From UHGV virus genome UHGV-0120889: 64,000 bases of DNA; one strand, 5' to 3'. Below are positions 17,279 through 61,949 of the stretch, piece by piece. Numbering within the stretch: position 1 is the stretch's first letter; each line of letters begins with the position of its first letter. The notes below the pieces were generated by a model. That model was given only the letters and a program-made list of their open reading frames with translations, was not told the DNA's origin and did no database searches. The position numbers and the translations under genes were made by a program. The stretch is from a virus.

Positions 17279-17355
17279 TGGTCTCCACGGAGTGATTCGA
17301 ACACTCGACCTCCTGATCCCAAATCAGGCGCTCTACCAAGCTGAGCTACGCGGAG
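17279..17355 (-). tRNA. tRNA-Pro (anticodon UGG)
   Basis: Manual cloverleaf: acceptor CTCCGCG/CGTGGAG, D-arm GCTC..GAGC, anticodon loop UUUGGGA, T-loop TTCGAAT, encoded CCA. Confidence 0.85.
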
Positions 17356-17366
17356 TATTTATTATT

Positions 17367-17441
17367 TGGTGGCCCTGGGTGGAATTGAACCACCGTCTGG
17401 CGATTATGAGTCGCTTGCTTGAACCTTCCAGCTACAGGGCC
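17367..17441 (-). tRNA. tRNA-Met (anticodon CAU; could be Ile-lysidine type)
   Basis: Acceptor GGCCCTG/CAGGGCC, anticodon loop CUCAUAA, T-loop TTCAATT, encoded CCA. Confidence 0.8.
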
Positions 17442-17442
17442 A

Positions 17443-17518
17443 TGGTGCTGATGGCAGGACTTGAACCTGCAACCTATTGATTACAAATCAATTGCACTAC
17501 CAATTGTGCTACATCAGC
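17443..17518 (-). tRNA. tRNA-Thr (anticodon UGU)
   Basis: Acceptor GCTGATG/CATCAGC, D-arm GCAC..GTGC, anticodon stem ATTGA/TCAAT loop UUUGUAA, T-loop TTCAAGT, CCA. Confidence 0.85.
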
Positions 17519-17524
17519 AAAAAA

Positions 17525-17623
17525 GGTGCTAGGTGATGGAATCGAACCACCTATGTATTCAACGACTACCTCGTCTATTTTCAGGATTAAAAATCCTCGC
17601 CCTTGCCAAAGGGCTTACCTAGC
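17525..17623 (-). tRNA. atypical tRNA-like gene (possible anticodon UUU; ~30-nt extra arm)
   Basis: Acceptor GCTAGGT/ACCTAGC, D-arm GCCC..GGGC, T-arm GGTGG-TTCGATT-CCATC present, but 99 nt long with oversized variable region and no encoded terminal A. Confidence 0.3.
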
Positions 17624-17721
17624 TCAGTATGTTGACCATGTTGCTAGTCGGCGATGACGACTGTAACATTTGATAATCCGGTTCTGCTTCCGGCTTTCGC
17701 TTAATTACAAGGTCAACAATA

Positions 17722-17812
17722 TGGCTGAGGGTAATGGAATCGAACCATCATCGAGTCATCCTCAACGGGACGGTTTTCAAGACCGCTTGAGCACCATTGC
17801 TCCCTACCCTCA
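17722..17812 (-). tRNA. tRNA-Ser (anticodon UGA), type II
   Basis: Anticodon arm GCGGT-CUUGAAA-ACCGT, long variable arm, T-loop TTCGATT, acceptor TGAGGGT/ACCCTCA, CCA. Confidence 0.75.
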
Positions 17813-17926
17813 TTTATAAACAATACTGATAATGACACTGATTTTCGAGCAGTTAGTGACTAGTATAAACGACGATAAATATCAATGCCATTATCTGTAT
17901 GATTTATGCATTTAAAACTATAAATT

Positions 17927-18013
17927 TGGTGGGGAGTGGTGGAGTCGAACCACCCGAGTCGTAATGACAATAGATTTACAGTCTACACCGCTACCTCTAC
18001 GGGATAACTCCCC
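17927..18013 (-). tRNA. tRNA-Tyr (anticodon GUA), type II
   Basis: Anticodon loop CUGUAAA and variable arm TGTCATTACGACTCG closely resemble bacterial tRNA-Tyr; acceptor GGGGAGT/ACTCCCC, CCA. Confidence 0.85.
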
Positions 18014-18017
18014 AATT

Positions 18018-18092
18018 TGGCACCCCGTACTGGACTCGAACCAGTGTCAACGGCTTAGAAGGCCGCTGCTTTATCCACTAAGCTAACAGGGC
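18018..18092 (-). tRNA. tRNA-Arg (anticodon UCU)
   Basis: D-arm GCTT..AAGC, anticodon arm GCGGC-CUUCUAA-GCCGT, T-arm ACTGG-TTCGAGT-CCAGT, CCA. Confidence 0.8.
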
Positions 18093-52387: not shown

Positions 52388-52671
52388 TAATGAAAAAGAT
52401 TAACAGTAGTGAAGTCGAGTTTAAACTTGTCGGAAAAGGCACTTACTGGGAAGTTCGTCAAAAGGTATATTTGTTCGGTCTTATTCCTTACTGGTCTAAA
52501 TTCTACTGGGGAGCTAACGAGTGGGGAAGATACGCCACCAAATCAATGGCACTTATTGGTATAGCAGAGTACATTGCAGCCAGAGATAGGGTTGGAGACA
52601 CTTATTACTATACTGCGGACGATATTCGTAACAGTGTTTACGTCCCACAACCACCTGATAGAGACCGTTGA
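52384..52671 (+). CDS. hypothetical protein
   Basis: ORF track. Confidence 0.4.
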   Translation: MIMKKINSSEVEFKLVGKGTYWEVRQKVYLFGLIPYWSKFYWGANEWGRYATKSMALIGIAEYIAARDRVGDTYYYTADDIRNSVYVPQPPDRDR

Positions 52672-52882
52672 TGAAAGTTAAAGTTTTAGATTCAAGCTTC
52701 TATATTGGTCAGGAGCCCTTAGTGGGGAAGTGTTTACTGCTGTCCCTAACGAAGATTACCCCGACCTTTTAAAAATAAAAGGAGCAGACCTGATCACCGC
52801 TGGTGCACCTGAATATTATTTCGGGGAAGAGTCCTATTATACCTTTGGGGTAGGGTCAGATGCAGATATTGTAGAGCTGTGA
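52671..52882 (+). pseudogene. frameshifted member of the small acidic protein family (or programmed -1 frameshift)
   Basis: 33-codon ORF MKVKVLDSSFYIGQEP... stops at 52770; -1 frame continues KIKGADLITAGAPEYYFGEESYYTFGVGSDADIVEL with family-type C-terminus; junction in TTTTAAAAATAAAA run. Confidence 0.4.
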
Positions 52883-52894
52883 TGGGTAACCGTT

Positions 52895-53293
52895 GTGAAA
52901 AATAAACTGTTCAAAGTTACAATGAAAATTCGCGGAGCTTGGAGCGTAAAGCAAGGGCGTATTCCAGAATTTGAGAAAGACTTCTACGTAGTCTCCACCT
53001 CGGAGGAGGCTGCATGCTGGCAAGCTGGCTATGCCTATGCAAGAACCTGGTACGAAGGATACCAGACTGGGGGCTATGACGGAGAAATTATCAGCAAGGG
53101 TGTAGAAGAAATTAATGTGTTGACAAGTGAAAAAGTTTTTGTTATAGTGCATCCAGATTCCAGAGTGAAGCATTACTGGAATGCCAGAACAAAAACTTGG
53201 ACACCGTTTGCAGATTCTGCTACGCCACTTTTAAACCAGAAAGCTCTTGACTCTGCCCCAAGTTATGGGGTTGTTGAAGAAAAGCTAAACTGA
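52895..53293 (+). CDS. hypothetical protein, paralog of 55100..55495
   Basis: Shared C-terminal motif HP.S...YW.....WTP....AT.L with 55100..55495. Confidence 0.45.
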   Translation: MKNKLFKVTMKIRGAWSVKQGRIPEFEKDFYVVSTSEEAACWQAGYAYARTWYEGYQTGGYDGEIISKGVEEINVLTSEKVFVIVHPDSRVKHYWNARTKTWTPFADSATPLLNQKALDSAPSYGVVEEKLN

Positions 53294-53310
53294 AACAGTG
53301 AGGTGCCACT

Positions 53311-53601
53311 ATGATGGATTTAGTTCTGAATATTGATAACGCAGGAGAGCTTAAAGACGATGGTGTAACAAGCATGGACAAACCCTGCTCTGCCGAGGTT
53401 GACTCAAAATGGACCTACAAGTTTGACGGAGAGATCTTCGCAAATGATGAGAAGGTTGTAGATGCTGCAGCCATTTTGAACGCTTTAGGGTACGACCCTG
53501 TGAATTCTTTGATCAAGGATCCTGTTGAGTTTGCAGAGTATGTTCGAAAAATGGCAGATCTTGCTGTGGATATTTTAAAAACTATCGATAACAAGCTGTA
53601 A
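53311..53601 (+). CDS. hypothetical acidic protein
   Basis: ORF track; AGGTG RBS. Confidence 0.4.
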   Translation: MMDLVLNIDNAGELKDDGVTSMDKPCSAEVDSKWTYKFDGEIFANDEKVVDAAAILNALGYDPVNSLIKDPVEFAEYVRKMADLAVDILKTIDNKL

Positions 53602-53607
53602 AAACTG

Positions 53608-53636
53608 TTGACACAACGCTTCAGATTTAGTATCAT
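53608..53636 (+). promoter_or_regulatory. sigma70-type promoter
   Basis: TTGACA (53608) - 17 bp - TATCAT (53631). Confidence 0.55.
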
Positions 53637-53683
53637 TGTTTTCAAAGAGGGTTTGGTTCCCTCTTCTTTAAAAGGAACACGTT

Positions 53684-54001
53684 ATGCAAATTGAAATCAC
53701 TGGCAACGTAGAAATCACTGAAGGTATGGTGTCTTTCATTTCCCACAAAATGTCTAAGCTGGAGCGTTTGCACCCCTCTGCCAACTATGCACGTGTGAGT
53801 GTAAAAGTTGAAAATGATCACCAGGAAGTTATGGCGTTCATTTTTGACAATTCCGGAAAAGAAGTTATTGCCAAAGCTAAAGGTAGCGATGCTTACGAGG
53901 CAACTGACCGTATGGTAGATGTTGCAGCACGTCAGCTGGCTAAATGTGGTGGAAAGAAAGGTAAGGGGAAAGGCAAAGTAAAGATTGACTTTGTAGAATG
54001 A
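53684..54001 (+). CDS. ribosome hibernation promoting factor / RaiA (YfiA) homologue
   Basis: MQIEITGNVEITEGMVSFISHKMSKLE...AKGSDAYEATDRMVDVAARQLAK matches HPF/YfiA family pattern (ITG..EIT....KL....D.Y.A.D....RQL.K). Confidence 0.7.
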   Translation: MQIEITGNVEITEGMVSFISHKMSKLERLHPSANYARVSVKVENDHQEVMAFIFDNSGKEVIAKAKGSDAYEATDRMVDVAARQLAKCGGKKGKGKGKVKIDFVE

Positions 54002-54138
54002 GGTGCTACAATGAGCGTGATTAAGAAATTAGTCCCAAATGTAGAGATTGCATGCTTTGAAATTATGTTTGCAATCGCAGTTGTAGTTAATGTGTTAGGT
54101 TACGGCTATTAATATCAAATAATTGAGGAGACCTCTAA

Positions 54139-54408
54139 ATGAAAATTAAATTATTCAAAACTGAGCTGGCAGACAAAAACTGTGGACTGGTTGAAGGCAT
54201 GATTGTTGAAGCACAACCAGTGGACTATATGAAGGTGGTTCGTGATGCCCTGGGTGAAGGTTTTGATCTGATGGAGCCAGCTCTGCGAGAAGATGTTATC
54301 GAGATGGCTAAAAAGCACACACCTGAGGGTTTGGTGGTGTTTGTTGCACCTGGTAATGGAGAAGAGTTGATTGTAACTCCTGATGTGTATGAGATTGTAG
54401 AGGAATAA
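54139..54408 (+). CDS. small acidic protein, paralog family member
   Basis: MKIKLFKT N-terminus; C-terminus TPDVYEIVEE. Confidence 0.45.
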   Translation: MKIKLFKTELADKNCGLVEGMIVEAQPVDYMKVVRDALGEGFDLMEPALREDVIEMAKKHTPEGLVVFVAPGNGEELIVTPDVYEIVEE

Positions 54409-54499
54409 TCCTGCTTGGATTAGCATACTTCCTCGCTAAGGAAGATTTGTAATTATTTGTGGGAAAGGAATCCCAATCTCTTACCAGAGGTGATACTAT

Positions 54500-54763
54500 A
54501 TGATTGTTTATTTTAAAACTTCAGGTGGATACCCTGATTCTCAAAGCTTGATCGGAAAAACGTGCACAGCATACTCACCTCTTGATGAGGAGGTAAGTGA
54601 TATTCTACGAAATATGTATCGGATTGACCCCCAAGAAGCTTTTGATCAAAACCTTGTATTTGTCAAGGGCTCAGACATGAAGTCTTTGGGAGCATTCCCT
54701 GAAGCAGATGATGATGCCGTTTATTCGTTCATGACTCCTTTTGAAGCTATGGTTGTTGGGTGA
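54500..54763 (+). CDS. hypothetical small protein
   Basis: ORF track. Confidence 0.4.
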   Translation: MIVYFKTSGGYPDSQSLIGKTCTAYSPLDEEVSDILRNMYRIDPQEAFDQNLVFVKGSDMKSLGAFPEADDDAVYSFMTPFEAMVVG

Positions 54764-54767
54764 TAAT

Positions 54768-55100
54768 ATGAAAGTACGCTTTATTGGTGAAACAATTCCT
54801 GTGCATCTCCGGTCTCCTGAGGATTCTGCAGATCTTGCATCTCAAAAGGCGAGAGGTTATGATAAGAAAGTAACCTCAACTGATGTAGTGCTTGAGGCTA
54901 CTAGTCTACCTGACCCTGCTGCATTCTTTAATCATTATGGGTACTATTTCAGCAATCTGATGAATATCGGTGAGCTTGTGTTTATTAGTGGTGGAGAGAT
55001 TGTTAGCAAGCTTGGCGGCGATCCGGATGTCTTTCATGAAACCTGTCCTTTTGCATTTGTGGTAGGTTCAGATGTGGAAGTTATTGAGGAGGTGCGGTAA
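54768..55100 (+). CDS. small acidic protein, paralog family member
   Basis: MKVRFIGE N-terminus at internal ATG 54768; C-terminus SDVEVIEEVR. Confidence 0.4.
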   Translation: MKVRFIGETIPVHLRSPEDSADLASQKARGYDKKVTSTDVVLEATSLPDPAAFFNHYGYYFSNLMNIGELVFISGGEIVSKLGGDPDVFHETCPFAFVVGSDVEVIEEVR

Positions 55101-55495
55101 TGGTAAGCCTATACCGTGTTGAGTATAGCTCAGATACTGTATACAACGTAAGAAGCAAAGATCGCAGCGACAGAGTGCAAGAAATGTATGTTCTTGCCGA
55201 CAGTCCGTTATCTGCAGCGTTCAAGGCAGGGGCTCTTGCATCTCGTTGGAAATTTGAAGGCGGATCTTTCTATGAAGAAACCCTTGAAGATTCTGTTGTT
55301 ATTTCTTCTGTAGAGGTTTCAGATGACTACGAAGGGAAAAAGTTCGTAATGCGGCACCCACACAGCAACATTGCGTACTACTGGGATGTTCTGAACAACG
55401 AGTGGACCCCAGATCTTCAGAAGGCTACTGTGCTAACACCGTTTTTGGCAGATAAGTTCCCACCAGAAGGTAATTTATCCGCACTGTTTCAGTAA
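55100..55495 (+). CDS. hypothetical protein, paralog of 52895..53293
   Basis: Shared RHPHSNIAYYWDVLNNEWTP...KATVLTPFL motif block. Confidence 0.45.
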   Translation: MVSLYRVEYSSDTVYNVRSKDRSDRVQEMYVLADSPLSAAFKAGALASRWKFEGGSFYEETLEDSVVISSVEVSDDYEGKKFVMRHPHSNIAYYWDVLNNEWTPDLQKATVLTPFLADKFPPEGNLSALFQ

Positions 55496-55513: not shown

Positions 55514-55544
55514 TTGACAACGCCAACCCTGTGTGAAATAATAC
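55514..55544 (+). promoter_or_regulatory. sigma70-type promoter
   Basis: TTGACA (55514) followed 18-19 bp later by ATAATA/TAATAC. Confidence 0.45.
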
Positions 55545-55574
55545 CTTCATCTTAACAAGACAGGAGACCGATTG

Positions 55575-55832
55575 ATGAAGATTAAATTGAAAAACCTTGA
55601 AACGGCAGAGATTCAGGACGGTGTTGATTTCCGTTCTAAAGATGGTGACATCTTAGAGGTAAATATTCCAACCTACGAGCTGATTAAAGGTTTTGGCAAC
55701 GTTCCGGAAGAGGATATTACAGAAATTCTTATGATGTTGATTCTTGACGGAACTGTGTTTGTAGGTGAAGGTGAGAACGCTATTGCAATCCCAGGCCATT
55801 TTTATGAAGTAGTTGACGAAGAGGTGCTGTAA
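55575..55832 (+). CDS. small acidic protein, paralog family member
   Basis: ATG 55575 with GGAGA RBS; MKIKLKN N-terminus; C-terminus FYEVVDEEVL. Confidence 0.45.
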   Translation: MKIKLKNLETAEIQDGVDFRSKDGDILEVNIPTYELIKGFGNVPEEDITEILMMLILDGTVFVGEGENAIAIPGHFYEVVDEEVL

Positions 55833-56183
55833 ATGAAAGTAGAAATTACTGGTTTTGATGTTAATGTGGTTCCGGAAGATATTTTAGCTAAACTTCCGGA
55901 AGGTTTTGGTAACGGTGTTGTGGTGGATGCTGTTCCTCCTACTAAAGACATTCTGCTGCAGTATGGTGTAGCAGAGGAAGATGTCGATAAAGTTCTTACA
56001 ATGATGGCAATCGATCGTGTTGTCGTTGTTAAAGGTCTCGATAATTTTGAGAGTGATCCACTGATTATTCGTGGAGATGACTACAAAATCATCGATAATG
56101 AAGGCCAAGAGTTCTATGAGCCTTGTGCAGAAGATATTCTTAACTTATTACTGGAAGCAGGCACCGAAGAGGAGGACGAATAA
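55833..56183 (+). CDS. small acidic protein (MKVEITG N-terminus)
   Basis: ORF track; acidic C-terminus EEEDE. Confidence 0.4.
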   Translation: MKVEITGFDVNVVPEDILAKLPEGFGNGVVVDAVPPTKDILLQYGVAEEDVDKVLTMMAIDRVVVVKGLDNFESDPLIIRGDDYKIIDNEGQEFYEPCAEDILNLLLEAGTEEEDE

Positions 56184-56512
56184 TGAAGATTGACCCGTTA
56201 CTGAAGGCTCGTGCAGAAAAAGCGTACACCATTAAGTTGACCAACTTGGTTCCTACTTGTCATCCGGATGTAGGTTGGCCCGAAGGTTTGGTGGAGGGAA
56301 CTGTAACAGCTGCATACCTTCCTAACATCAAATACCTCATGGAAATCTTGGAGCTGGATGAGGAAACGGCAGAAGAGTTCCAGTTGGACATGAAACAAAG
56401 TGGGACTCTGGTTATTCACGGGTGGTACAATACTAAAGATGTAGAAGACCCTCTGGTAACTTCTAATCTGGCATATGAAATCTTAGGGCCTTTGAACCTG
56501 GAGGAAGACTAA
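56183..56512 (+). CDS. small acidic protein
   Basis: ORF track; coupled overlaps on both sides. Confidence 0.4.
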   Translation: MKIDPLLKARAEKAYTIKLTNLVPTCHPDVGWPEGLVEGTVTAAYLPNIKYLMEILELDEETAEEFQLDMKQSGTLVIHGWYNTKDVEDPLVTSNLAYEILGPLNLEED

Positions 56513-56799
56513 TGAAAGATCTGGTTAAGATTAAGATTAAAGATACCAATGGAGAACTCAGCCATTTTGGAATTAATGATGGTGACGAGCTGATCGCACA
56601 CCTGCCTACCAAGGAGGTTGTAAGCAAAGCAGTTGCCGGAGAAGAAGCTGCAATGCAGGCTGCAGGTGTGGATGAAAACTATGTAGCTATGTGCATGTGC
56701 CGAGATCAGGTTGTTCTGTATAAAGCGTATCGACCAAACGGAGCCACGGAGTGGCTTGTATTCCGACCCGAAGGATATGAAATCTTAGAGGCACTATGA
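56512..56799 (+). CDS. small acidic protein, paralog family member
   Basis: MKDLVKIKIKD N-terminus; C-terminus PEGYEILEAL. Confidence 0.4.
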   Translation: MKDLVKIKIKDTNGELSHFGINDGDELIAHLPTKEVVSKAVAGEEAAMQAAGVDENYVAMCMCRDQVVLYKAYRPNGATEWLVFRPEGYEILEAL

Positions 56800-58266: not shown

Positions 58267-58574
58267 GGTGGATTATGTCTACAAAGGCGGCTAAATACTC
58301 CTATATGCCATCAACCTCTGCAGAGGTAGACTTTAGTTTCGATGTGTTTCCACTGTTTGAGGTGGTTCTGGCATACCCAACAATACTATCTACTCCTGAA
58401 TCACTTGTGCCTGTTAAGTTGCAGAACGCTATGCATTCCATGCACTACAACAACAAATGTAGGCACAGATGGTGTCAGGACGAGGAAAAAGATTTGGATA
58501 GTTTGAGAGATTTTGACAGTCACCTTTTGACACCTTTCAGCTACTCCAACCTTGATAAGCCCTCGTGGGTATAG
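58263..58574 (+). CDS. hypothetical protein
   Basis: ORF track. Confidence 0.4.
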   Translation: MRWIMSTKAAKYSYMPSTSAEVDFSFDVFPLFEVVLAYPTILSTPESLVPVKLQNAMHSMHYNNKCRHRWCQDEEKDLDSLRDFDSHLLTPFSYSNLDKPSWV

Positions 58575-59186: not shown

Positions 59187-60376
59187 CCTGAAGAGGCAAA
59201 CGTGCATAATTCCAGCGTATTGGAACGCATAAAACCCTGTTCACACTCTCATTTTCCAGAGGAGATTTCATGAAGATAGAAATATTTGGTGGAGCTGACA
59301 ACACTCGTGGCCTGATTTACCTTGAATTCGAGGAATCATACCTGCCAGAGGTGTTAAATATAGACTCTGTTGCTGAGGCTTTGGGAGTAAACCCTAAAGA
59401 ACTCCACTCTTGTGCTGAGATCGATGGTTGGGAAGAGACCATGAACATTGATTTCAGTGAAGTAGAGGATGAACCGCTGGACTGACACACAATTAGCTGC
59501 CCGGCTAAAGTGCTGGAAGCACCTATAACACATCTTTCAACTAAATTTCCTACCACCACAATCACTTACCTCCCACACATGACTGTTTGCTTGTTTAGTG
59601 AGCAGTCATGCCTTGACATTCTTGCCTATCTTGATAAAATTAAGTTCTTCTCTTTTCTTTTACCGAGTAATTCGGGTTTTCTGTTCTCTTCGGTTTGAAG
59701 GGGTATGGAGATACACCTGAGTGAACAGGGTGAACAACCGAACCTTTGGCTATGGCATTAGCATGGCGAAGCGGACGGGTGACGAAAGAGGGGCCGGAGG
59801 ACACCAGTCACTGCCATATGATATATGGGTGATAACCTGAAGAGTCTGAATAAGTGTTTAAGTACCAGTCAGAGGAAAAGGTGAATGGTAGCCGAAGGGG
59901 GAGGGGGGTTTCTTGTATCTTTAATTTGTATATTATGTATACACTTGTAAACCAACACCATCTGAATTTGTTTACCACAGAAAGCGGATAGAGACAAATA
60001 TTACCTATTAAACTTGAATTATTTATAGAAAATACCACAACACCACTTAAGTATTTGATTTTACACATAAATCCTACAGATATTCACCCTCCATATTTAA
60101 CATACTTGTAACATATTCCATACTCTACCTGTCTGATCAATTTCCCCAACTACACCCACCATATTTTCCCTGTCTGTACCACCCCTGACCCGCCGGGAGT
60201 CCCGTCATATCTGGCTTTCCAGCAAATATCACACCCACAAATATCATTGCCTGAAGAGGGTTTCATCCCATAATACATGCCTTACCTGAAGAGCGCTTCA
60301 TACACCACGTAAATTTTTTAATTGACCCCCTCCCCGCCGCCGGAGAGGTTGTCTTTTCCCACACAGACCTGAAGAG
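59187..60376. repeat. five dispersed copies of 9-mer CCTGAAGAG in an ORF-poor region
   Basis: Exact copies at 59187, 59836, 60250, 60285, 60368 (all same orientation). Confidence 0.8.
59270..59485 (+). CDS. small acidic protein (MKIEIFGG N-terminus)
   Basis: GGAG RBS; N-terminus like family members. Confidence 0.4.
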   Translation: MKIEIFGGADNTRGLIYLEFEESYLPEVLNIDSVAEALGVNPKELHSCAEIDGWEETMNIDFSEVEDEPLD

Positions 60377-60903
60377 TCAGTCAGAAATATCTGAATGGAC
60401 CCAATTCTGCCCTGTCATGAGCGGTAGCGACTGGAGTGCTGCCAGGCGGACGAAATGGGAATACTTCTCATTCTTATAATAATTCTCAAATATCGAGGCA
60501 GTGAGGAAAATTAATAGGTGAGGCCGTTCACACAGTGGCACAACATTTGCAACCTATCTTGTGGGGGTGAATGAGAATACCTATCATTGTGAGAATAGTT
60601 ATCATTACGGGCAATTTAACATAATACCCATTATGCGCACCACTGGCGATCCATACAGGGATTGATAACATGAGTTACAGTTTACGCATATAACAATCAT
60701 ATTTCTTACTATTTGTGTGGGATATAGTTAGCAGCCGATAGATTAGATATTGACCTGTGGACTTCCAACCATCTAGACGTCTAAACGCCCACACAACAAG
60801 GATTATACATACATTACTGAATGTAAACAGGGCCGCAAAAATGCTACCATACCAGTTTGTAAATTTTTCATGCAGCACTTGACAAAGAGGAGGAAAACTT
60901 GTC

Positions 60904-61028
60904 TGACATAATGTGACCTAACTGACACAACATGACACTTTTACACACCTATTAGTTTACACACTGGATTGTTTACATTCCTGATTGTTCACATGCTAAC
61001 CATTTACATGATTGACTGTTTACACACC
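60904..61028. repeat. iteron-like arrays: TGACA x4 then TTTACA(C/T) x6 at ~16-bp spacing
   Basis: TGACA at 60904-60937; (T)GTTTACA-type units starting 60940, 60955, 60972, 60988, 61003, 61019. Confidence 0.7.
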
Positions 61029-61036
61029 GATAATCA

Positions 61037-61287
61037 GCCATGCCATTCGTTTGCATGACAATAATTATACATGACAATAATCGCACTGATTATAATTAGC
61101 ATGACATAATATAAAAGCAGGGCAACTATTAGCAGATCTATAGTTGCCTTGCTTGTCATGTCATGATTAACTAAATACAAGGCAACTATGATCTGATTAA
61201 TAGTTTGCAGACAAACTATCACGGGGGTGATGGTTACTGCTTTTATATTATGTCGCGACTCCGTCGCGCCATGCCATTCGTTTGCAT
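61037..61287. repeat. 251-bp element bounded by perfect 20-bp direct repeats with nested inverted repeats
   Basis: GCCATGCCATTCGTTTGCAT at 61037..61056 and 61268..61287; inner 15-bp inverted repeat 61106..61120 / 61237..61251; palindromes GGCAACTAT-N10-ATAGTTGCC (61121..61148) and 61181..61208. Confidence 0.8.
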
Positions 61288-61949
61288 AGTTGCCTTATTG
61301 TTACAGGTAAAATAATTGTATTGTTAATTATTTCTTATCTTTCTATTAGTCATCTAATGATTCCAGTTAGTATAGTAACGTACAGTAAACATTAGACGAC
61401 TAAAGATTTCTCTGCTTATGATAACCTAACGTGACAATTTCAGACTGTTTACGAAAAATGTTGACACCTGAGCTGATTTATGTTATGCAGTTTACACGAA
61501 TAATTATTTTATGCAGGTATTGACTATTCCGTTATTCTATGGTTGGAATAAATACTTAGCAGACTATAGAATGGTGAGCGTACGTAAATTCTGAGATCTG
61601 TCGGCTATAGTTATACTCGATTTTTCACGTAGAACACGCTTTTTGGTTTGTGTAAGTGTATGACTTATAAAGATTTTTAGTTGTTGACAAGATATTGGAG
61701 ATGTGCATCAGATTAAATTTTGTGCAATAGCTACATTACGTGCACTTTTGGAAGAAAAAACGTGTAAAAATGGCCCTGCTACCACACAATGAAAGATTAT
61801 GCAATAGTTATTTTATATGTATATTTGTACAGTGTGTGGGATTAATGGCTAGTCAATTATTCCACTTGCCAGGTAGGGCCGTTTATGGTAGGAGAAGAGC
61901 AGACAAAAAGAAAGGGGCCTTTAAGCCCCTTGATAATTCAATTAAGAAA

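Follow-up and report, generated by a model that had tools for sequence, protein, structure and literature searches.

Anciently diverged paralogs flanking a ribosome hibernation factor gene in an rV5-like Escherichia coli phage, and strain-dependent fitness effects of their orthologs

The 64,000 nucleotide virus genome sequence UHGV-0120889 (hereafter the window) carries, on either side of a gene for an HPF/S30AE ribosome hibernation factor, two genes which we call A and B, and whose 132 and 131 residue products are paralogs. Both genes are under strong purifying selection, the duplication that gave rise to them is ancient, and published transposon-insertion data for their orthologs show that they are dispensable on Escherichia coli K-12 but important on the uropathogenic isolate CFE311. 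A pair of paralogs recognized from sequence alone is thereby tied to a strain-specific fitness phenotype that is publicly tabulated but undiscussed; function probably resides in a cassette of three genes, and neither copy is redundant with the other. We give about an even chance to the explanation that A and B are non-redundant early host-range or counter-defense factors belonging to an anciently diverged, phage-specific family of 131 residue proteins (PHROG 7379). Over the 5 kb around the A/B locus the window is 98% identical to CarlMeissner (Bas48), to rV5 derivatives, to FFH2, and to some 120 other Vequintavirus genomes, and by this similarity it is an rV5-like E. coli phage, a myovirus of the genus Vequintavirus. 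Phages of this kind are widely employed as candidates for therapy and for biocontrol of pathogenic E. coli; to our knowledge, the majority of their early genes are without an assigned function. The A/B phenotype is testable, bears on host-range prediction for Vequintaviruses, and could yield a new phage factor together with its host determinant, possibly a new defense system and its inhibitor.

The first-pass annotation of the window described a pair of 131-132 residue open reading frames (ORFs) flanking HPF, and took them to be paralogs. Both ORFs are indeed found on the + strand with HPF between them (Table 1), and several comparisons bear out the paralogy: i) BLASTP aligns A and B with 33/119 identities (28%, E = 8e-10); ii) the Smith-Waterman score of 111, set against shuffled controls as the annotation had proposed, is far above the 27.9 +/- 4.8 obtained for shuffled B (n = 5000, z = 17, 0 shuffles as high); and iii) in a profile search, also proposed there, both proteins match phrog_7379 from end to end (A, E = 4.3e-74, residues 2-132 on profile positions 1-131; B, E = 2.1e-66, residues 1-131 on the same positions), so that the relationship was already implicit in public clustering. 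Two particulars need to be amended. The shared C-terminal block is real but the similarity is not restricted to it, extending instead from residue 4-5 (LFKV in A, LYRV in B) to about residue 119; and the separation, given as about 2 kb, is 1.8 kb from gene to gene and 2.2 kb from start to start. B has a strong ribosome binding site (GAGGAGG), and its ATG shares bases with the stop codon of the preceding gene, Y2 (TAATG). The BASEL annotations place the start of A at an internal ATG (52922); the longer reading from GTG is supported by alignment of the two paralogs, by an ATG at the equivalent codon in L002 (a relative from IMG/VR), by an equivalent GTG in the divergent lineage, and by strand beta-1 of the structural model, which is predicted to span residues 3-12. 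The isoelectric point of A is neutral to basic (7.95) and that of B acidic (4.74), a trend that the divergent homologs follow as well.

Between the window and L002, synonymous sites are ~40% diverged and non-synonymous sites ~2% in A and B alike; a ratio of non-synonymous to synonymous change (dN/dS) of ~0.04 at a synonymous divergence (pS) of ~0.4 shows that both are real protein-coding genes under strong purifying selection. B is intact in 119/119 matching phage records, and A is full-length in 117/118. The exception is Bas59 EduardKellenberger (L027, MZ501061, 2135-2602), where a deletion has removed the first 99 codons of A together with two small upstream genes, X1 and X2 (see below), and has fused the last 33 codons of A to the upstream glycosidase gene; the Y1-Y2-B cassette of this phage is intact.

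Relatives outside the genus are few and distant. A tblastn search of the INPHARED phages finds A and B matches only in Vequintavirus records, at identities of at least 95%, and k-mer or word-seeded searches of 5.8 billion proteins return only near-identical proteins, fragments, and chimeras. Only two genuine relatives of full length (P0007 and P0008) emerged from an exhaustive hidden Markov model (HMM) search of 1.84 billion representatives, and a further profile search adds P0013; three other HMM candidates (P0010-P0012) proved on inspection to be repeat-protein false positives and were discarded, and a scan of genome_contigs found no relative. The contigs bearing the relatives are 120-140 kb Vequintavirinae-like metagenome genomes, together with one phage contig from an E. 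coli assembly, and the family as it stands comprises ~119 Vequintavirus genomes and two uncultivated sister lineages, X and Y. Over at least 5-8 kb to either side, lineage X carries just the A type and lineage Y just the B type. The lineage X protein shares 40% identity with A, and that of lineage Y 38% with B, whereas all comparisons of A-type with B-type proteins give 27-32%; the duplication is therefore ancient, older than the divergence of the three lineages from one another. In other respects the lineages retain the same gene order, each paralog in its own syntenic slot; no HPF homolog was found in lineage X, which retains the A-type gene. In one lineage X metagenomic contig (L023, 4644-5384) the A-type gene is in frame with an upstream 120 residue ORF and no stop codon intervenes, leaving a 247-codon open frame, perhaps a gene fusion.

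The duplicated unit is probably larger than the gene pair of the first-pass annotation. B is preceded by two small acidic genes, Y1 and Y2; in CarlMeissner, MaxBurger, and rV5_ev146, A likewise follows a tandem pair of small acidic genes, X1 (74 residues) and X2 (84 residues). X1 and X2 are 42% identical (E = 8e-16), X2 matches Y2 by BLASTP (E = 2e-5), and in hhalign comparisons the X family matches both Y2 (probability 95.5%, E = 1.4e-8) and Y1 (probability 95.6%, E = 1.1e-8, 82 columns); a direct comparison of Y1 with Y2 is not significant, and the two are linked only through the X profile. These matches indicate that X1/X2 and Y1/Y2 are one small acidic gene family (the S family, as distinct from the L family of A and B), and since its members precede A as well as B, what was duplicated was probably a small-small-large cassette, X1-X2-A and Y1-Y2-B. 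Y1, Y2, and B are found together in Vequintavirus and lineage Y and are absent together from lineage X. The association of X1/X2 with A is looser: lineage Y has X1/X2 but an unrelated 96 residue gene in the A slot, and lineage X has A without adjacent X genes. In the window itself X1 and X2 are reduced to a remnant, fused by a deletion of 257 bp between the copies of an internal repeat that they share, and one A is missing from the run GGGGAAAG, causing a frameshift at about codon 20. The deletion is present in 0/12 of the best-matching database records listed, all 12 of which show the longer form; the remnant is likely a pseudogene, or possibly a sequencing error. Around the B cassette there are also five paralogous genes for small, very acidic proteins with a C-terminal Y-E-I/V-V/I-E motif (the Z family), conserved in both sister lineages; hhalign rejects the Z family as kin of either the S family (probability 2%) or the L family (probability 0.1%).

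The function of A and B had been given as unknown, which holds to the extent that no named family matches either protein; strain-specific fitness effects can nonetheless be assigned to both orthologs from transposon-insertion sequencing (Tn-seq) of phage Bas54 (MaxBurger, MZ501093), on which saturating transposon mutagenesis was carried out in the HIDEN-SEQ preprint (10.1101/2025.11.20.689424). In Bas54, A is bas54_0157, B is 0150, Y2 is 0151, Y1 is 0152, and HPF is 0155, and the window A, B, Y1, and Y2 are 99-100% identical to their Bas54 counterparts (A 100%, B 99.2%). On K-12, insertions were recovered at 25/25 TA sites of 0150 (B) and at 18/19 of 0157 (A), and both genes were classed as non-essential (10.1101/2025.11.20.689424). 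In the resampling comparison of K-12 with a clinical isolate (Extended Data Table 8), mean counts fell from K-12 to CFE311 from 108 to 0 for B (log2 fold change -6.77), from 71 to 0 for Y2 (-6.17), from 142 to 0 for Y1 (-7.16), and from 256 to 57, or ~4-fold, for A (-2.14), with an adjusted p < 1e-5 in each case; the neighboring genes 0149, 0154, 0155 (HPF; log2 fold change -0.53, not significant), 0156, 0158, and 0159 were unaffected (10.1101/2025.11.20.689424). Because B is indispensable on CFE311 despite the presence of A, and loss of A costs ~4-fold despite the presence of B, the two genes are not redundant. Nor is the depletion of B a polar artifact: no gene of its unit follows B, and 0149, which comes next, is read from a promoter of its own and is not affected. 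The preprint authors contend that insertions in their system seldom have polar effects (10.1101/2025.11.20.689424), with which the unaffected HPF insertions upstream agree.

The source of these numbers calls for a comment. Sheet S6 of the supplement is titled CFE303, yet its command line names the 311 sample, and the numbers in sheets S6 and S7 are identical; we looked in the supplement for a comparison of K-12 with CFE303 and found that both sheets hold CFE311 numbers. That the S6 data come from CFE311 follows from the depletion in this sheet of the published anti-DS-28 genes, 0063 and 0140. Only these two genes were followed up in the preprint, against DS-28, and the systems tested there were only DS-28 and Gao_Tmn, in each case with knockouts of 0063 and 0140 (10.1101/2025.11.20.689424). 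Papers on Bas48 and KpAvs2, on Aionostat evolution of Bas54, on daunorubicin, and on CRISPRi-ART and EdH4 contain nothing on the A or B genes.

Scans of A, B, and their divergent homologs against Pfam-A, NCBIfam, and PADLOC returned nothing meaningful: A and B have no match at E <= 1 in Pfam-A or PADLOC-DB, P0007 and P0008 have none in PADLOC-DB, a PDB sequence profile search gave only a chance match to aphrodisin (E = 0.38), and the S30AE domain (PF02482) matches neither A nor B but only the gene between them. Invariant positions of the family are Y30, A39, G44, R49, G54, F82, H86, P87, W95, W102, A109, T110, P121, and G124, and conservation is strongest over the motif FVxxHPxSxxxYYWDxxxxxWTP; the invariant residues include neither an acidic nor a nucleophile set, no enzyme family is matched, and the alignment does not suggest catalysis. 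AlphaFold2 gave a mean predicted local distance difference test score (pLDDT) of 57 from two sequences, and 69 from seven sequences with B as query (predicted template modeling score, pTM, 0.63); the B model has a beta-beta-alpha-beta topology followed by a beta-rich C-terminal half. Foldseek against the PDB ranks at the top almost exclusively chains of ~166-188 residues from eukaryotic 80S, 60S, or pre-60S entries (E at least 0.18, template modeling [TM] scores 0.34-0.48); these chains are not named in the output, but their length and chain labels fit ribosomal protein eL20. The resemblance of the model to eL20 is weak, and we take it as a lead and not as family membership. Its N-terminal beta-beta-alpha-beta unit has structural matches in PurS, PaaB, T7 Gp2, and portal-vertex proteins as well, and a fold search of BFVD was uninformative, returning the paralog itself, a weakly matching 185 residue phage 4MG protein, and many generic 55-80 residue phage proteins aligned to the N-terminal unit.

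We favor, at the even chance given above, the explanation that A and B are host-range or counter-defense factors. As small soluble proteins, they would act by binding rather than by catalysis; they would neutralize, or adapt the phage to, a strain-variable component of the host, most likely an anti-phage defense of CFE311 other than DS-28; Y1-Y2-B would work as a single module; and A, basic where B is acidic, would have diverged toward a different or overlapping target. A and B would not be categorically new in this respect, but members of the large class of phage accessory, probable counter-defense genes: they are dispensable on a laboratory host (as seen by Tn-seq, and in the natural partial deletion of A in Bas59) and conditionally required on a wild host, here the one strain CFE311. 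An instructive comparison is with bas54_0140 and bas54_0063, anti-DS-28 genes whose cognate defense was shown by clean knockouts (10.1101/2025.11.20.689424). Both belong to the same phage genus as A and B and, in the same screen, are likewise non-essential on K-12 and strongly depleted on CFE311; bas54_0140 moreover lies in the same early gene block, on the + strand and 3 kb downstream of B, and has a 99% identical ortholog in the window (58275-58574). They differ in having no sequence similarity to A or B, and in that their defense target, DS-28, has been identified. PHROG 7379, the whole 131-position profile of which A and B match, carries no annotation, and the subfamilies, the cassette context, and the phenotype are unrecorded there.

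Several points weigh against a host-range or counter-defense role: i) we found no similarity of A or B to known anti-defense proteins; ii) the requirement on CFE311 could reflect the physiology of that host rather than a defense system; iii) the phenotype derives from a single host strain and a single unreviewed supplement, with the duplicated S6/S7 numbers and labeling mismatch described above; iv) the depletion of Y1 and Y2 could be polar on B, although insertions in HPF, upstream, are not depleted; v) X1 and X2 show no depletion on CFE311, so that the genes of the A cassette do not act together; and vi) the preprint text is silent on 0150-0152 and 0157. A more specific proposal, which we hold only tentatively and consider appreciably less probable, is that Y1-Y2-B is a three-protein counter-defense module of a new structural family directed against an immunity system of CFE311, with A as a diverged sister effector for a second target. 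In a more speculative variant, suggested by the eL20-like fold of the model, the proteins might act at the ribosome beside the phage HPF, shielding translation from a translation-targeting defense.

Three other explanations deserve consideration. A and B might be host-takeover regulators, for example T7 Gp2-like inhibitors of host RNA polymerase or of another conserved machine, whose strain dependence would be indirect; in favor of this, they sit in an early region with sigma-70-type promoters, among many small acidic proteins typical of takeover modules. On the other hand, a core takeover function would not usually tolerate insertions at TA sites on K-12 without a fitness cost, the resemblance to Gp2 is weak and covers just 51 residues, and the family is confined to one phage group. 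A and B are also about twice the size of T7 Gp2 and similar early binders, and have an additional conserved Trp/His-rich C-terminal domain, the one bearing the conserved motif. We think such a role unlikely. Slightly less likely again is that they are translation or ribosome-associated factors with an eL20/LX-like fold, which would bind host ribosomes or rRNA and remodel translation together with HPF. The top ranking of eukaryotic ribosome chains of eL20 length by Foldseek and the position of HPF between A and B speak for this; yet the N-terminal unit matches several other proteins as well, Pfam gives no sequence match to a ribosomal family, and neither eL20 (L18a) nor archaeal LX has sequence similarity to A or B, the likeness being one of fold only (TM-scores < 0.5); eL20 is, besides, absent from bacteria. 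Moreover, HPF insertions are not depleted on CFE311 while B insertions are, lineage X keeps an A-type gene with no HPF homolog found, and a general role in translation does not predict a strain-specific phenotype.

Finally, A and B might be dispensable, decaying duplicates, in effect genomic filler, with the Tn-seq signal an artifact of polarity or of the data tables. Their non-essentiality on K-12, the loss of the first 99 codons of A in EduardKellenberger, the degraded X1/X2 of the window, and the inconsistent labeling of the supplement could all be read in this way. The selection data largely refute decay, however: dN/dS is ~0.04 in both genes despite ~40% synonymous divergence, B is intact in every matching record, and both subfamilies have been kept since before the three lineages split. 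Polarity, for its part, cannot explain the depletion of B, last in its unit and followed by an unaffected 0149. We regard this last explanation as very improbable.

The A/B locus lies within a long run of small genes on the + strand, many of which encode small acidic proteins. A promoter scan of this gene block finds, on the + strand alone, several exact TTGACA -35 boxes accompanied by good -10 elements, as would be expected if host RNA polymerase transcribed the block as an early or accessory region. We treat the HPF gene only as context for A and B. The 96 residue phrog_12029 gene that follows A is kept beside the A slot in all three lineages. The stable hairpin just downstream of B overlaps a near-consensus sigma-70-like promoter (TTGACA-17-AATAAT, 55514-55542), including its -35 box, that serves the next gene block. 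A search of Rfam found no RNA family within 52-57 kb.

Table 1. Features of the A/B locus and its immediate neighborhood in the window.
Feature	Coordinates	Strand	Remarks
X1/X2 remnant	52671..52882	+	DNA alignment against CarlMeissner and MaxBurger
Gene A, L-family paralog 1	52895..53293	+	GTG start, 132 aa; ortholog of bas54_0157 and bas48_0156
96-aa acidic gene directly 3' of A	53311..53601	+	phrog_12029; ortholog of bas54_0156
Putative element from consensus scan	53608..53636	+	11/12 matches
HPF/S30AE ribosome hibernation factor gene	53684..54001	+	Pfam PF02482, E = 1.8e-12; between A and B
Z-family genes	54139-54408, 55572-55832, 55833-56183, 56183-56512, 56512-56799		
Y1, small acidic S-family gene	54500..54763	+	87 aa; first gene of Y1-Y2-B; ortholog of bas54_0152
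Y2, small acidic S-family gene	54768..55100	+	110 aa from annotated ATG; ortholog of bas54_0151
Gene B, L-family paralog 2	55100..55495	+	ATG start, 131 aa; ortholog of bas54_0150 and bas48_0149
Stable hairpin just 3' of B stop codon	55504..55542	+	Centroid -17.6 kcal/mol, z = -3.0; no U-tract

Some further observations concern the locus and the remainder of the window. Within the coding sequence of A, positions 53120-53148 are a near-perfect sigma-70 match with an extended TG (TTGACA-17-TATAGT), which may be an internal promoter for the 96 residue gene and HPF, or may be due to chance. Directly 3' of HPF, a 33-codon hydrophobic ORF (54012-54113; MSVIKKLVPNVEIACFEIMFAIAVVVNVLGYGY) that is annotated in the related phages examined (bas48_0153, bas54_0154) probably encodes a small membrane peptide. 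Farther downstream, the region at ~59500-61900 is ORF-poor and AT-rich (GC 0.38), shows a change in the sign of GC skew, and lies between divergently transcribed blocks; it corresponds to a ~2 kb 'intergenic' region of Bas54 from which no transposon insertions were recovered, and might be an origin of replication or some other non-coding element that is essential. Seven tRNA genes are clustered on the - strand at 17279-18092, one of them 99 nucleotides long, for which ARAGORN calls a four-base anticodon (atcc). Lastly, 18 GenBank records (MG0656xx) titled 'Campylobacter phage' share 95% identity or more with E. coli rV5-like phages over the A/B region, probably as a result of host mislabeling or contamination.

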